From Candidatus Saccharimonadales bacterium (GTDB taxonomy: Bacteria; Patescibacteriota; Saccharimonadia; Saccharimonadales; JACDFO01): a stretch of DNA of 56,621 bases. A program made the position numbers and the translations under genes. A model generated the notes under the pieces. That model was given only the letters and a program-made list of their open reading frames with translations, ran no database searches and had not been told where the DNA came from. Positions 28,964 to 37,651 of the stretch are shown piece by piece. The stretch spans positions 1 through 56,621 of the forward strand of contig JBBSLJ010000005.1 of the NCBI GenBank assembly GCA_038255465.1, written 5' to 3'. How positions within the stretch are numbered: position 1 is the stretch's first letter; each line of letters begins with the position of its first letter.

Positions 28964-29416
28964 TCAGATTTTCAACAATATTACCAATACCAAACAAGCG
29001 CTTGCAAACCACGCCACTTCGACAACACCGCCGATTGGCCTTTGAAACCACTGTATCCACGTATGGAACTTTACTAAAAAGTTTGATGGCAGTATATCTT
29101 CTTCGGCACGACGCGCGCGTAAAAACTTTGGAATCCACATAAAGTCCGGGCTAGTTGCTATAAATGCACACGCAATCGCTATCCACGCCCCATTTCCGTT
29201 TGCGCGATATAGCACCACTACAAGCAAAAAGCAAAGCAGGGCATCGGCTCCTAATCCAAGCATATATCGTGTTGACCCAAGGTTTTCTTTTCTACTGCCA
29301 TAATGTGGCAGTGCGTCTAAAACAAAATGGGAAGCAAACGCCAAAGGTATGGCCGAAGGGTGCTGCACGACACTTCCTAGTATCGCTCCAGTGAGCGCAT
29401 GATTTATTGCACGCAC
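28964..29416 (-). CDS. putative membrane-bound metal-dependent hydrolase
   Basis: NHALTG...SHFVLDALPH...PD...H pattern with TM helices; GTG start overlaps the hisS stop. Confidence 0.65.
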   Translation of the reverse strand: MRAINHALTGAILGSVVQHPSAIPLAFASHFVLDALPHYGSRKENLGSTRYMLGLGADALLCFLLVVVLYRANGNGAWIAIACAFIATSPDFMWIPKFLRARRAEEDILPSNFLVKFHTWIQWFQRPIGGVVEVAWFASACLVLVILLKI

Positions 29417-30723
29417 TACTTGTTACGGTAATCTTTTAGTATGCTGACAGTACGTTGAACACTGTGGCGTTCTTCTTCACCGGTATGCAGATCCTTTAGC
29501 ACCAATTGCTCGTCCTCGAGCTCACGCTCACCTATAAAAAGTACAAACTGAATATCCTTTTTAGCGGCACTTTTAAGCTGTTTATCGGGCTTACGGCCCG
29601 ACATATCAACTGACAATTTGATTCCCATTTCACGTAGATCCTGGATCATGTTTTGTGCTTGTAAGTACACGTCGCCGACAAGAATCAGACAGGCATCTGC
29701 CTCGGGCCTTAAGATAGGCTGTAGGTTATGTGTTTCCAGAAAATTCTGAAGCGTGACGTCACCCATGCCGAAGCCAACAGTTGGGACCGGCTCTACACCG
29801 AACAGGCCAACTAAACCATTGTAACGGCCGCCGCCGAACATGGAGCGATTATTCTCGGGGTTGTTATCGAAAACTTCAAAAACTATATCCGTATAGTAAT
29901 CAAACCCGCGCATTAGTGTTGGGTCAAAAACAACATTGGAAATTTTGGATTCTTTAAGCAGCGTCAGCAATGTCTTAAGCTCAAGTACTGACTCGTGATT
30001 TTTTAACTCTTCAGCTATATCATCCAGTGATTTCAATTTCAAAAATGCAAATAAACGACCCGCATTACCTGCCTCGCGTTGGCTTGGGCTAAATAGCGCC
30101 TCCGCTTGGGCGGCAAACGCCGCAGGGTCCATCTTGTGCATGCGGTCTATAAGCCGTATAAGCGTCTGGGCCTGTGTGTCATCCTCGCCCAACACATCTT
30201 TAAGCAATGTGTTGATTAGCTTGCGGCTATTAAGTTTAATGGAGTACATGTCCCGCTTGGCGCCGTAAGCCCGCATAATTGCATCAGCAACCTGAATAAT
30301 TTCGTGATCGGCTTCTATGCCGGCAATACCAAATAAATCCACATTGAGCTGCCAAAACTCGCGCAACCGTCCGCGCTGTGGCCGTTCGTATCTCCATAAG
30401 TTTGGAATCGAGTACCAGCGTACCGGGTAGGCCAGCTCTTGCCGTTTACCAGCCACCATACGGCTTACACTTGGCGTCATTTCAGTTCTAATAGTTACGC
30501 TGCGATCTCCGCGGTCAGTAAACGTATACGTTTGCTCGTTAACGATCTCATCTGAAGTTTTGCTTGCAAACAACTCGGTTGGCTCTAAGATTGGTGCGTC
30601 ATACTCTTCGTAGCCAAAACGCTCACATACTTGCCGCATAACGCCAAACATGTACTTTTGCAGGCGTTTATCTTCAGGATAAAAATCCCGCGCACCTTTA
30701 TATGGTTGTGTAGAAAGTGCCAT
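29416..30723 (-). CDS. hisS: histidine--tRNA ligase
   Basis: YKGARDF, IRTEMTPS, RYERPQRGRLREFWQ, RGFDYYT, GGGRY, GFGMG; GGAGG SD. Confidence 0.98.
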   Translation of the reverse strand: MALSTQPYKGARDFYPEDKRLQKYMFGVMRQVCERFGYEEYDAPILEPTELFASKTSDEIVNEQTYTFTDRGDRSVTIRTEMTPSVSRMVAGKRQELAYPVRWYSIPNLWRYERPQRGRLREFWQLNVDLFGIAGIEADHEIIQVADAIMRAYGAKRDMYSIKLNSRKLINTLLKDVLGEDDTQAQTLIRLIDRMHKMDPAAFAAQAEALFSPSQREAGNAGRLFAFLKLKSLDDIAEELKNHESVLELKTLLTLLKESKISNVVFDPTLMRGFDYYTDIVFEVFDNNPENNRSMFGGGRYNGLVGLFGVEPVPTVGFGMGDVTLQNFLETHNLQPILRPEADACLILVGDVYLQAQNMIQDLREMGIKLSVDMSGRKPDKQLKSAAKKDIQFVLFIGERELEDEQLVLKDLHTGEEERHSVQRTVSILKDYRNK

Positions 30724-30735
30724 AGTTGACCTCCA

Positions 30736-31647
30736 TTATAGCTTATCAATCGTAAGCTTGTTATTCTTAACCGTTATTATTAGATGTTCCCCGATTGGAA
30801 GCGGTAATGATGCCGCCTTATAACCCCTTGGAAATTCATACAAAATAGGTATGTTAGCTAAATAATCTCTCTTTGTTACTGACTGCTCAAATTCTTTTTC
30901 GTTTAACATATATGTTTCTGGAAAACTACCTATTAACAACCCGGTGATGTTTTCTTTTGCTCCAGGCAACAGCATAATCGAGTCAAGATTTCGTATAAAA
31001 TCCTGCCAAATTCTGTTTTTGGAAGTTATACAATCTTCACCTTCAAGTAGAAGAATGTAAGGTTCATTAAATTGTGGACAAAACTTGGTACCTTGCAATA
31101 AGTCAAAACTGTAGTTATTGCCACCCCATATTTTTCCTGTCATTTTGCCGGGTCGATAGACCTTAAATGAAATCTGATTATAGAGTCGACTCAGCTCTTG
31201 GTAATTTGATTTGTAAACAGCCTTGAGTGAATTAACGTACAGTTCAAGGAATTGCGGGTTTTTAATTCAGTTTCGTAACATCGGCCCCATTACGCCGCGC
31301 ATCATACCAAAAGCGGGTAATGCATTTACCAGAACCGTATTATCGGAATATCCTACAAAAATCTTGCGTTCATCAAGTTCAAGTGCGGGAATAAACTCTA
31401 AAAGTTCAATTGCATTAAAACCACCATCCCAGGCTATAACAATGTCAGCGTTCTGGGACGCCCGCTTTAGAGACTGTAAACGATCCGTTATTGACCGAGA
31501 ATCAAATATGTCATTTGCCCTAATATCGCCATAAATGCCGAGTTCCATATAGTTGCCTACTGTACGAGCTAACTGCTCAATCTCCACCATATCTTGCTGT
31601 GTTGCGCCAAGGCTCGTAATGCACACACCGACTTTAAGCTTGCTCAT
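30736..31647 (-). pseudogene. S66 family LD-carboxypeptidase / MccF-like peptidase interrupted by one in-frame TGA
   Basis: GGFNAIELL, IFVGYSDNT, GPML, LLEGED, PLPIG. I read the frame by hand from 31647 to 30736: it is continuous except for TGA at 31267-31269. Confidence 0.8.
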
Positions 31648-32479
31648 TCCTACCTATCCTTTCCCCAATCCAACTATCTATGTTTCCACAGGTAAGGTCA
31701 GTAATATCACTTAAATCAACTGCGAATTCTGGTACTCGATACTTATCATCTCCGATAGCCGGGTACTCGTCACGAGGCTTCCACTTAATCACGAGCGGCT
31801 CAACGCCTAGTGCTTCTTTGGTTGCCCAAAAACCTAAGCGTGCTGGCGTAAAATCGGGGAACGCATCAAAATCACAAAAAAGCACCGCCCTAGCTGCATA
31901 CAAACACATAAGTCTCGGGTAGTAATATGCCGCTTTAGAACCCGTTCGCCACCCATTTTCTAAAGCCTGTTCAAGATACCAGTTACTGATATCAAAGACA
32001 TTACTGTCTGTCGCTTGATTTCTAGCAGCTACTACGTCACATAGCGATTGCCAGTATTTCTGAAGCGTTACACCGTAGTTAGTGACAATACTACCGATTT
32101 CGGGCGCTTGTTTGGCCGTGGTAATTTTTTGCTTTACTATCTGCCCCTTCGGCAAAGCAATACGCGGACAAGCCATATTACTTTTTTTAGCATTTGAAGT
32201 CGTAAACTCGTCTTTTGCGTATGTAACGGTCCAAGGCCGCAAGCCTAGTTCATTTGACCTGGAGGCATAATCCAAATCTCCCACCGTTGGTCTGGCAAGA
32301 TATTCAGCTCTAACTGACGGCACCACATCACCATCTAGTGCAAACGCACCGGCTACTAGCTGGTCCGCTAAATAGTTTTTAAGCTCTTTTTGCAAAGAGG
32401 CATCAACACGACGATTGCCCATAATTTCAGCGGCATCATCGGCAGATACATAGTTAATTTCATTCATTATTTTCTCCAA
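31634..32479 (-). CDS. uncharacterised protein (281 aa; alternative start 32467)
   Basis: Long ORF, first gene after the attenuator; overlaps the S66 gene start by 14 nt. Confidence 0.8.
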   Translation of the reverse strand: MEKIMNEINYVSADDAAEIMGNRRVDASLQKELKNYLADQLVAGAFALDGDVVPSVRAEYLARPTVGDLDYASRSNELGLRPWTVTYAKDEFTTSNAKKSNMACPRIALPKGQIVKQKITTAKQAPEIGSIVTNYGVTLQKYWQSLCDVVAARNQATDSNVFDISNWYLEQALENGWRTGSKAAYYYPRLMCLYAARAVLFCDFDAFPDFTPARLGFWATKEALGVEPLVIKWKPRDEYPAIGDDKYRVPEFAVDLSDITDLTCGNIDSWIGERIGRNEQA

Positions 32480-32495
32480 AATGTTGTTAGTACAT

Positions 32496-32523
32496 AAAAA
32501 AACGCCGGAGCATGTCCGGCGTT
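32496..32523 (-). terminator. intrinsic terminator within a 5' leader (attenuator)
   Basis: AACGCCGGA-CATGC-TCCGGCGTT-TTTTT, in the sense orientation between the promoter and the first CDS. Confidence 0.85.
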
Positions 32524-32545
32524 ATATTTTTAGAGAAATAGTAAA

Positions 32546-32602
32546 CTAACCGACGAGCTCCGGCAAAATATGCAGATGGGGGTTAATTTGACTAATATAC
32601 AT
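32546..32602 (-). CDS. putative leaderless leader peptide MYISQINPHLHILPELVG
   Basis: ATG is the 7th nt after a perfect TATAAT. The ORF contains GCCGGAGC (32557-32564), complementary to the terminator 3' arm. Confidence 0.7.
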   Translation of the reverse strand: MYISQINPHLHILPELVG

Positions 32603-32608
32603 AATTAT

Positions 32609-32637
32609 ATTATACTACACTGATTATTTGTTGTCAA
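32609..32637 (-). promoter_or_regulatory. perfect-consensus sigma70 promoter
   Basis: TTGACA-N17-TATAAT. Confidence 0.9.
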
Positions 32638-32688: not shown

Positions 32689-32958
32689 ATGTACCGTAAG
32701 CGCCATGATCAAGCAGTCGATATCTGGAGTTCGGCTCACTTCTTTGAGGGAATCGTTTTTGTTCAATTTCTTCCGCCATTAGTTGCCCTCGCACTGCTGG
32801 CCGCCTGGGAACCATTTGAGAATTTTGTTTTATCGCCCCTGCTTTGGCGCTACTTTAAAATAAACTTTGGTCACGAGAGCCTGCGCAATGCCCTTGGTGA
32901 CATTTACTTTGATGCGCTTGGTATCGCTATCGGCTTGGTATTGTTGCAGCTTTATTAG
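32689..32958 (+). CDS. small membrane protein with conserved-looking H, WE and E..N..GD residues
   Basis: 89 aa, about 3 hydrophobic segments; TATACT 7 nt before ATG. Confidence 0.7.
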   Translation: MYRKRHDQAVDIWSSAHFFEGIVFVQFLPPLVALALLAAWEPFENFVLSPLLWRYFKINFGHESLRNALGDIYFDALGIAIGLVLLQLY

Positions 32959-37622: not shown

Positions 37623-37651
37623 TTGACAATCCTTATGCTTAGGCGTATAAT
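37623..37651 (+). promoter_or_regulatory. perfect-consensus sigma70 promoter facing the recombinase
   Basis: TTGACA-N17-TATAAT. Confidence 0.85.

Follow-up and report, generated by a model that had tools for sequence, protein, structure and literature searches.

What would a consensus promoter serve that is followed, little more than 100 nt further on, by an intrinsic terminator? The question is raised by a 56,621-nt stretch of DNA from a Candidatus Saccharimonadales bacterium (here called the window; its source genome comprises 1.2 Mb in 104 contigs), in which a sigma-70-type promoter, an 18-codon open reading frame (ORF) and a terminator, all on the minus strand, precede a gene for a 277-residue protein (unk277), a gene of the S66 peptidase family and hisS, the sole histidyl-tRNA synthetase (HisRS) gene of the genome. 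A first-pass annotation, made from the letters of the window, had proposed that this element is a leaderless, tRNA-His-sensing attenuator heading the hisS operon. Comparison with relatives supports that proposal through the recurrence of the element, once per genome, in 52 of 401 genomes, through the his and hisS genes that neighbor it and through its conserved histidine codons. The same comparison bears out the parts of the element and the covariation of four alternative pairings (segments 1:2, 2:3 and 3:4 and a helix, P1). The element is thus very probably a transcription attenuator of the ribosome-mediated (leader-peptide) kind, which responds to charged tRNA-His and governs read-through into unk277, the probable S66 pseudogene, hisS and the genes beyond.

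A promoter, a short reading frame and a terminator before hisS

The promoter agrees with the consensus at every position of both hexamers (Table 1). Perfect TTGACA-N17-TATAAT sites occur twice in the 56.6-kb window, compared with a mean of 0.05 in shuffled sequence and with no case of two sites in 100 shuffles; the sole other site lies at 37623-37651 on the plus strand. The terminator begins 22 bases past the leader stop and reads AACGCCGGA-CATGC-TCCGGCGTT (32523-32501, minus strand). As RNA it forms a 9-bp GC-rich stem, AACGCCGGA/UCCGGCGUU, closed by the loop CAUGC, and the final two U of the stem open a U7 run at 32502-32496. Within the ORF, GCCGGAGC (32564-32557, codons 13-16) is the exact 8-nt reverse complement of GCTCCGGC in the terminator (32511-32504; GCUCCGGC as RNA). 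The 113-nt transcript has a folding energy of -29.7 kcal/mol (z = -3.9), and none of 200 shuffled sequences was as stable. The perfect promoter, the ATG opening the 18-codon ORF, the 9-bp terminator with its T7 tract and the complementarity named in the first-pass annotation are all in the sequence, and together they exceed what is likely by chance. No promoter-like site was found between the terminator and the first gene start at 32467, so any downstream expression from the leader promoter must cross the hairpin. A GGAG Shine-Dalgarno motif lies about 30 nt past the hairpin, followed by the ATG of the 277-aa ORF at 32467. A genome-wide search for sets of promoter, leaderless mini-ORF and terminator returned four candidates, the other three without obvious amino-acid bias. 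One such set, on contig C2 of the genome near 37885 (minus strand), has the mini-ORF MSYSYQYTKSVLPRPLPL, with three Tyr and three Ser in its first ten residues.

Relatives of the element were collected in two ways. A search of public genomes with the shared 18-nt core yielded 27 loci in Saccharibacteria/Saccharimonadales with a promoter, an ORF of about 18 codons and a terminator; counting the window, all 28 pattern-found copies have an ATG-started ORF, and hisS is among the first three downstream genes in 19 of the 28. In a genome of the same order (G379), the leader, unk277, S66 and hisS are arranged as in the window, and the homologous 18-codon ORF encodes MFTQTNQSQSHISPELIG. Because the search with the 18-nt core fixes the core sequence, a covariance model (R1) was built from the alignment. 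The 52 genomes of the class that it matches belong to 40 of 187 genera and carry exactly one match each, including the genome of the window, where this stretch scores 97.7 bits and is the sole match in 1.2 Mb. Downstream of 39 of 50 matches, hisS is found on the same strand, though many of the flanks extend only 1.5 kb, and several of the other copies are followed by genes for a short HisG, histidinol dehydrogenase (hisD) or PRA-PH (HisE). In one close relative the leader lies about 2 kb 5' of hisS, and the end of a histidinol dehydrogenase gene directly precedes hisS. Since it occurs once per genome and before his or hisS genes, the element is, as judged from this comparison, a single-copy leader of those genes and does not belong to unk277.

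These neighborhoods also bear on whether the element is a leader at all. A stand-alone small RNA (sRNA) or a gene for an 18-residue peptide that merely adjoins hisS, with the downstream genes served by other promoters, would account for a strong promoter and terminator about 105 nt apart and for a fold with a z of -3.9. A possible hisS promoter exists at 30764-30735, and terminated attenuator RNAs are known to act in trans elsewhere, as in the case of rnTrpL (PMC7968998). However, the element is always co-oriented with, and directly 5' of, his or hisS genes, and the gaps between terminator and hisS are often just 15 to 50 nt, leaving no space for a promoter. In addition, a covarying pairing that overlaps the terminator would be purposeless in a plain sRNA, and the tail of the peptide is not conserved. 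An independent gene of either kind is accordingly quite improbable.

Conserved histidine codons and a leaderless start

Among 73 distinct leaders, a His codon stands three codons before a Pro codon in every one; this anchor position corresponds to His11 of the window. His is also present at position -2 from the anchor (His9 of the window) in 61 leaders and at -3 in 36. Three His codons are found in 32 leaders, two in 29, one in 10 and four in 2, and either CAT or CAC may be used at each His position. The first-pass annotation had taken His9 as the key codon and had considered His11 probably too close to the regulatory structure to signal; the family reverses this assignment, as His11 is the only His found in every copy. 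Past the Pro codon, the peptide is not conserved (ELVG, ERIG, DFAG, LRVG, ENSLR, VPAR and others), which indicates that the constraint in this part is on the RNA rather than on the peptide. The distance from the anchor His to the motif GCCGG is constant, with GCCGG at +11 to +15 from the first base in the P site when the anchor His occupies the A site. Ribosome footprint geometry would place +11 to +15 inside the mRNA channel of a stalled ribosome.

A real ribosome-dependent attenuator could nevertheless respond to something other than histidine, for instance to stalling at Ile, Leu or Pro codons or to antibiotic slowing of the kind seen in erm- and bmrCD-type leaders. Two His codons in the window, and one in ten members of the family, are consistent with such a signal, as is the Pro codon at +3, which is as constant as His, and some of the downstream genes (peptidases and unknown proteins) could be read as resistance genes. 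On the other hand, 39 of 50 copies lie ahead of hisS, and others ahead of hisG, hisD or hisE. Besides Pro, whose codon lies in a paired RNA segment (segment 1, below), no residue but His is kept, and further His codons, spelled either CAT or CAC, gather at -2 and -3. Ile and Leu positions vary freely among relatives, which weighs against an earlier suggestion that Ile3 or Ile6 might be the true signal. We therefore consider a non-histidine signal improbable.

Of the 46 matches that are not HisR tails (a variant described below; 51 model matches in all), 45 have a homologous in-frame ORF of about 15 to 25 codons that begins near the 5' end, the sole exception being locus L197; in some copies the frame opens at a GTG or TTG that lies a few codons 5' of the ATG. 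A TAnnnT -10 box lies 4 to 9 nt before the in-frame ATG in 41 of these 45 copies, and a Shine-Dalgarno motif was found in none. By this comparison the leaderless arrangement is a family trait. These counts also bear on a switch made of RNA only, such as a T-box, a riboswitch or an operator bound by HisRS, which would sense uncharged tRNA-His, histidine or HisRS and for which the ORF would be incidental. The RNA structure is indeed strongly conserved, and in Firmicutes hisS is usually controlled by a T-box (PMC2965389). Yet the transcript measures only about 105 nt compared with about 200 nt or more for a T-box leader, and no Rfam family matches it, T-box included. An incidental ORF would also be hard to reconcile with a frame that runs to a stop inside the conserved GGUUAG in 45 of the 46 copies at lengths of 15 to 25 codons, with an ATG at the leaderless position in 41 of 45, with synonymous His codons or with the occurrence of the same switch, in the same frame, where a genuine HisR-like protein gene ends. 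A switch of RNA only thus seems highly improbable.

This last arrangement was found in five genomes. In L195, L198, L200, L202 and, more weakly, L049, the match to the covariance model consists of the final 11 or so codons of a longer ORF (...HHxHxSPxRAE and stop), with a terminator of the same type behind it, and the four RNA segments have covaried as a set (GCCAGC, GCUG, CAGCACG and GCUGGC). The ORF of L049 (4890-5222, minus strand) matches the Pfam family Trp_repressor, and the other four are similar over the tail that could be read. HisR (YerC) is a TrpR-family histidine repressor predicted in Firmicutes (PMC9413887). The HisR-like ORF is followed by hisG and hisD in L202 and by unk277 and S66 in L049. 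In some genomes, then, a full-length HisR-like gene appears to serve as the "leader peptide." The window differs in having the 18-codon ORF only, with no HisR gene, and the mini-ORF may descend from the tail of a hisR gene.

Alternative pairings and the proposed switch

The 3' part of the ORF, consisting of segment 1 (GCCGGAG in the family) followed by segment 2 (typically CUUGUCGG or CUGAUCGG), is the reverse complement of the terminator, its counterpart there running from the end of the 5' arm through the loop to the 3' arm. Alternatively, each half may form a structure by itself, the ORF half hairpin H1 (segments 1:2) and the other half the terminator (segments 3:4). H1 (GCCGG/UCGGU) is part of the RNAalifold consensus and is paired in 90.5% of cases over 51 copies. 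Over the same 51 copies, 8 of the 9 base pairs of the terminator stem vary in both partners, and pairing holds in 92% of cells. A further helix, P1, joins ACUAACC-like codons just 5' of the His codons to GGUUAGU at the Gly and stop codons and is seen in the fold of the window. Pairing of the 5' part of a leader is more stable with the stop region of the same leader than with those of others (-8.35 versus -7.02 kcal/mol; 0 of 5000 permutations), and several copies carry compensatory changes in P1.

The 2:3 pairs are the informative ones, because the loops otherwise have no reason to be complementary to anything. Segment 2 occurs as 33 distinct octamers, each of which is complementary over 4 to 8 bp to the 5' arm and loop of its own terminator. 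Examples are GAUCGG/CCGGAUC, UGUCGG/CCGGACA and GCUCGG/CCGGGC, as well as GUUCUUCG/CGGAGAAC, GCUAUUGG/CCGGUAGC and CGUGCUGA/CCAGCACG. When leaders were paired with their own terminators and with those of others, in permutation tests that ignore the kinship of the sequences, the own pairing was the more stable in each comparison: -8.6 versus -5.5 kcal/mol for segment 2 with the 5' arm and loop, -12.2 versus -10.5 kcal/mol for segment 1 with the 3' arm and -25.8 versus -19.6 kcal/mol for segments 1 and 2 with the whole terminator (0 of 5000 permutations in each case). Despite that kinship, the number of independent variant types makes it unlikely that the pairing arose by chance.

This covariation supports a classical four-segment switch in which the 2:3 pairing is the antiterminator. 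The features of the attenuator class that were found are a short, putatively translated ORF with codons for the amino acid of the downstream genes, a terminator before the first gene, a 2:3 pairing at the end of the ORF and a 1:2 protector. The antiterminator proposed in the first-pass annotation, namely GCCGGAGC with the 3' arm of the terminator, was right in that this pairing is real (8 bp); covariation favors instead the pairing of codons 16 to 18 with the 5' arm and loop. Segment 1 is more likely to be a protector, covered by a ribosome that waits at His11, than the antiterminator, and it begins 11 nt from the first base of the P site for a ribosome that has His11 in its A site. The first-pass pairing, 1:4 in these terms, was rejected as the antiterminator proper: its stem abuts the U tract and so would not by itself stop termination, unless a ribosome blocked the base of the stem. 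The complementarity of segment 1 to the 3' arm is explained by the symmetry of the 1:2, 2:3 and 3:4 design, which entails it.

The switch would operate as follows. Transcription is predicted to begin with the A of the ATG or with a base adjacent to it, yielding a leaderless mRNA onto whose 5' end a 70S ribosome would load and then trail RNA polymerase. The four segments would be GCCGGAGC (segment 1), CUCGUCGGUUAG (segment 2), the 5' arm and loop of the terminator (segment 3) and its 3' arm with the U7 run (segment 4). With plentiful His-tRNA, the ribosome would reach the UAG and cover segment 2, so that 3:4 could fold and transcription would end near 32496. If the ORF were not translated, segment 2 would be held by segment 1 (in H1) or by P1, and the terminator would again fold. 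When His-tRNA is scarce, the ribosome is expected to wait with His11, or less so His9, in its A site, covering the 5' half of P1 together with segment 1 and leaving segment 2 free. Free segment 2 could then pair with the 5' arm and loop while the 3' arm has yet to emerge, blocking the terminator and allowing read-through. The order of folding matters in this scheme. In constrained folding with a ribosome mask at His9, the long duplex of segments 1 and 2 with segments 3 and 4 formed in 26 of 28 leaders; with the mask at His11, the terminator persisted in the minimum-free-energy structure, which means that antitermination would have to be kinetic, and we do not claim thermodynamic antitermination. 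Antitermination in trp leaders is likewise generally held to be kinetic.

The result of the His11 mask is one of several points that weigh against a histidine-sensing attenuator, another being the kinship left out of account in the permutation tests. The spread of the element is patchy, and it is missing from the region 5' of hisS in most of the closest relatives, among them the genome of the same genus. The positions that appear invariant are in part a collection effect, as the collecting pattern and the model contain conserved bases. Two His codons in the window, and one in ten relatives, are few for a graded sensor. Among the 33 segment-2 variants, that of the window forms the least stable 2:3 duplex (5 bp, -3.9 kcal/mol). 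Furthermore, hisS may have a promoter of its own, and if so, the attenuator may chiefly control unk277 at this locus. Finally, a search for RNA sequencing runs that hold the locus of the window or that of a relative with a complete 0.7-Mb genome returned none, only three DNA metagenomes.

Table 1. Positions of the leader elements and of the genes that follow them, numbered along the forward strand of the window
Feature	Positions	Strand	Description	Basis
Sigma-70-type promoter	32609..32637	-	-35 TTGACA 32637-32632, 17-nt spacer, -10 TATAAT 32614-32609	12/12 match to consensus
Leaderless leader ORF, 18 codons + TAG	32546..32602	-	MYISQINPHLHILPELVG	ATG 32602-32600, 6 nt past the -10 box, without Shine-Dalgarno motif
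Helix P1, 5' half	32582..32594	-	AGUCAAAUUAACC, codons 3-7; partner in untranslated RNA is the Gly18-stop region	Minimum-free-energy fold
Putative regulatory His codons	32570..32578	-	His9 CAT 32578-32576, His11 CAT 32572-32570	His11 three codons ahead of Pro14
Segment 1	32557..32564	-	GCCGGAGC, from base 3 of codon 13 through base 1 of codon 16; forms hairpin H1 with segment 2	RNAalifold consensus
Segment 2	32546..32557	-	CUCGUCGGUUAG, codons 16-18 + stop; pairs with segment 1 or P1, else with terminator 5' arm + loop	
Intrinsic terminator (segments 3 + 4)	32496..32523	-		Terminator scan; compensatory pairs in relatives
unk277	31634..32467	-	277-aa protein; first gene after the putative attenuator	Family without Pfam or NCBIfam match
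S66 (LD-carboxypeptidase/MccF-like) gene, probable pseudogene	30736..31647	-		Pfam S66 N- and C-terminal domains on two ORFs
hisS	29416..30723	-	Starts 12 nt past the S66 gene	Pfam tRNA-synt_His + HGTP_anticodon
Possible internal hisS promoter	30735..30764	-	ATAACA-18-TATAAT, inside the S66 gene end, 12 nt before the hisS ATG	10/12 match

Genes between the leader and hisS

If the leader belongs to his and hisS genes, the genes that separate it from hisS in the window require an explanation of their own. The two halves of the S66 gene are joined in frame by a single TGA (31269-31267), and the copy reads RGY where relatives have DFGH, with Tyr at the conserved His, which we take to be the catalytic His of S66 enzymes. 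On this evidence the S66 gene of the window is probably a decaying pseudogene. Recoding of the TGA was considered and rejected, because the other long ORFs of the window read intact with translation table 11, and 3 of 30 long ORFs terminate at TGA.

For unk277, domain searches returned nothing in Pfam or NCBIfam, including no ThiF/MccB-type domain. The predicted structure is of mediocre quality (AlphaFold mean pLDDT of 62), and a Foldseek search against the Protein Data Bank (PDB) gave no match with an E value below 0.1, only weak hints of a Rossmann/HUP-like, nucleotide-binding fold. A search of genome contigs for related loci returned none, and a word-based homolog search gave one match; the relatives of the protein were taken from a search of genomes and from a profile search. 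The latter places the family at about 670 cluster representatives (E values up to 0.001). Homologs were located in five genomes, with two more behind leaders of the family (L061 and L074), and in all four of the five genomes that were scanned the gene after the unk277 homolog encodes a peptidase (S66 or M28). Residues invariant in six members include Y6, R19, Y56, Y83, N92, D159, W163 and Q167.

The order of short ORF, terminator, unknown enzyme, MccF-like S66 peptidase and aminoacyl-tRNA synthetase, together with the Foldseek hints in unk277, recalls microcin C. The mini-ORF could then encode, like mccA, a precursor peptide that unk277 would modify, and S66 and HisRS would confer self-immunity. 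mccA, too, is followed by a terminator. However, the peptide of the window ends in Gly rather than Asn, its tail is not conserved and no ThiF/MccB-type domain was found in the neighboring protein. In addition, most members of the family have hisS or his genes directly behind the leader, without unk277 or S66, HisRS is single-copy and S66 is probably dead here. A microcin C-like precursor is barely credible in light of these facts.

The leader, unk277 and S66 together look like an added block. Behind hisS lie a 150-aa ORF, the gene for trigger factor, two short ORFs and clpP, and a divergent gene for an 89-aa protein starts at 32689; in the closest relatives, the counterpart of this divergent gene directly faces hisS-unk150-tig, which is why the intervening genes have the appearance of an extra block. 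Identity between the window and its counterpart with the same gene order is 28% for unk277 and 70% for HisRS, suggesting that the cargo between leader and hisS may be independently acquired or fast-evolving. In relatives that lack the leader, a TACAAT box stands as far from the hisS ATG as does the TATAAT box of the possible internal promoter. On the other side of the leader, the 89-aa gene (32689-32958, plus strand) has a divergent promoter-like site (TTGACT-17-TATACT, 32588-32616, plus strand) that overlaps the leader ORF of the minus strand. This site and the leader promoter stand back to back, and the leader terminator scores as a terminator on the plus strand as well.

Elsewhere in the family, the slot between leader and hisS holds other genes (L157, L164, L185, L195, L198 and L200), which encode SLOG/LDcluster4 proteins, AstE/AspA-type amidohydrolases and small unknown proteins, as well as a 275-aa protein with a PRPP-binding-like motif. 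This slot cargo may consist of histidine-salvage functions. It is possible, though we hold it as a tentative view, that the leader is the cis sensor of a histidine-starvation regulon of Saccharibacteria with swappable cargo, including the short HisG, HisE and HisD. An earlier proposal that the leader induces hisS together with an MccF-like module is supported for hisS; S66 is one of the swappable genes and probably inactive here. Nothing that was found points to the sensing of HisRS inhibitors, which had also been suggested.

In two genomes of other orders, different mini-ORFs with a terminator precede an unk277 homolog and an M28 peptidase gene (L050:4250-4370, plus strand; L051:3980-4110, minus strand). 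These mini-ORFs, MQVNKSNYHFWFSTNSSRKRLVVVPRVN and MDMTRPTYFFWRFAHSSRKRLVVVSIAS, are rich in Phe, Trp and Tyr and may be aromatic-amino-acid leaders for the same enzyme family. The occurrence of unk277-peptidase modules behind such mini-ORFs suggests a family of amino-acid salvage enzymes placed under leader peptides.

Relation to known attenuators

The mechanism proposed here is of a known kind, and it is represented by a new family in a new lineage. No family of Rfam release 15 matches the element, His_leader (RF00514) and T-box included, and the sole match at gathering score in the window is a tRNA; a permissive search (E values up to 10) yielded nothing but chance hits to sRNAs that score well under the threshold. 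Likewise, no description of such an element in Saccharibacteria or Patescibacteria was found in the searchable full text of the literature, in agreement with the statement in the first-pass annotation that no attenuator of this kind was known to have been described in this lineage. The check that it had proposed, for conservation of the His codons and stems upstream of homologous operons, found both kept across the copies of the family.

Gene regulation in the candidate phyla radiation is almost unexplored, and the leader would be a concrete regulatory device of Saccharibacteria, open to bench experiments. If our reading is correct, classical translation-coupled attenuation would operate in reduced genomes on leaderless transcripts, and charged tRNA-His would be a quantity monitored by host-dependent amino-acid auxotrophs. 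The genes under the leader, including the unannotated 277-aa family, are candidates for histidine acquisition, and should the regulon exist, its cargo would reveal histidine scavenging by auxotrophic epibionts. In addition, the natural compensatory variants of the antiterminator are a ready data set on the evolution of attenuators.

Enterobacterial hisL and trpL and the leader of Escherichia coli pheST (pheM) are ribosome-mediated attenuators. The element resembles hisL (RF00514) and trpL in its short ORF with cognate codons, in its mutually exclusive 1:2, 2:3 and 3:4 pairings with a U tract and, as proposed here, in an outcome set by the position of the ribosome, with termination as the default. 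It shares no sequence or model similarity with hisL, which has seven His codons in a row compared with one to three here (four in 2 of 73 leaders). It further differs from hisL in its putatively leaderless mRNA, in its presumed main target, which is hisS rather than a biosynthetic operon, and in belonging to a lineage of the candidate phyla radiation. As in the pheST attenuator, a synthetase gene is placed under a leader with cognate codons, whereas sequences and phylum differ.

His leaders have also been predicted for bacilli, where they precede a hisS paralog and hisZ (Naville and Gautheret 2010, PMC2965389), and for some Firmicutes (PMC9413887). Those leaders, unrelated in sequence and from a different phylum, were described with three to five consecutive His codons, whereas the present family has an H-H-x-H or H-x-H pattern whose spacing from the first paired segment is fixed. 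A parallel in the leaderless start comes from mycobacteria, in which leaderless polycysteine short ORFs are Cys-responsive attenuators (bioRxiv 10.1101/834739). In both systems, the sensing ORF stands, or here is predicted to stand, at the 5' end of a leaderless transcript, and the supply of the cognate amino acid controls, or here would control, the downstream genes of the operon. They differ in amino acid and phylum, and the Saccharibacteria element combines its leaderless ORF with a canonical intrinsic terminator and a covarying antiterminator.

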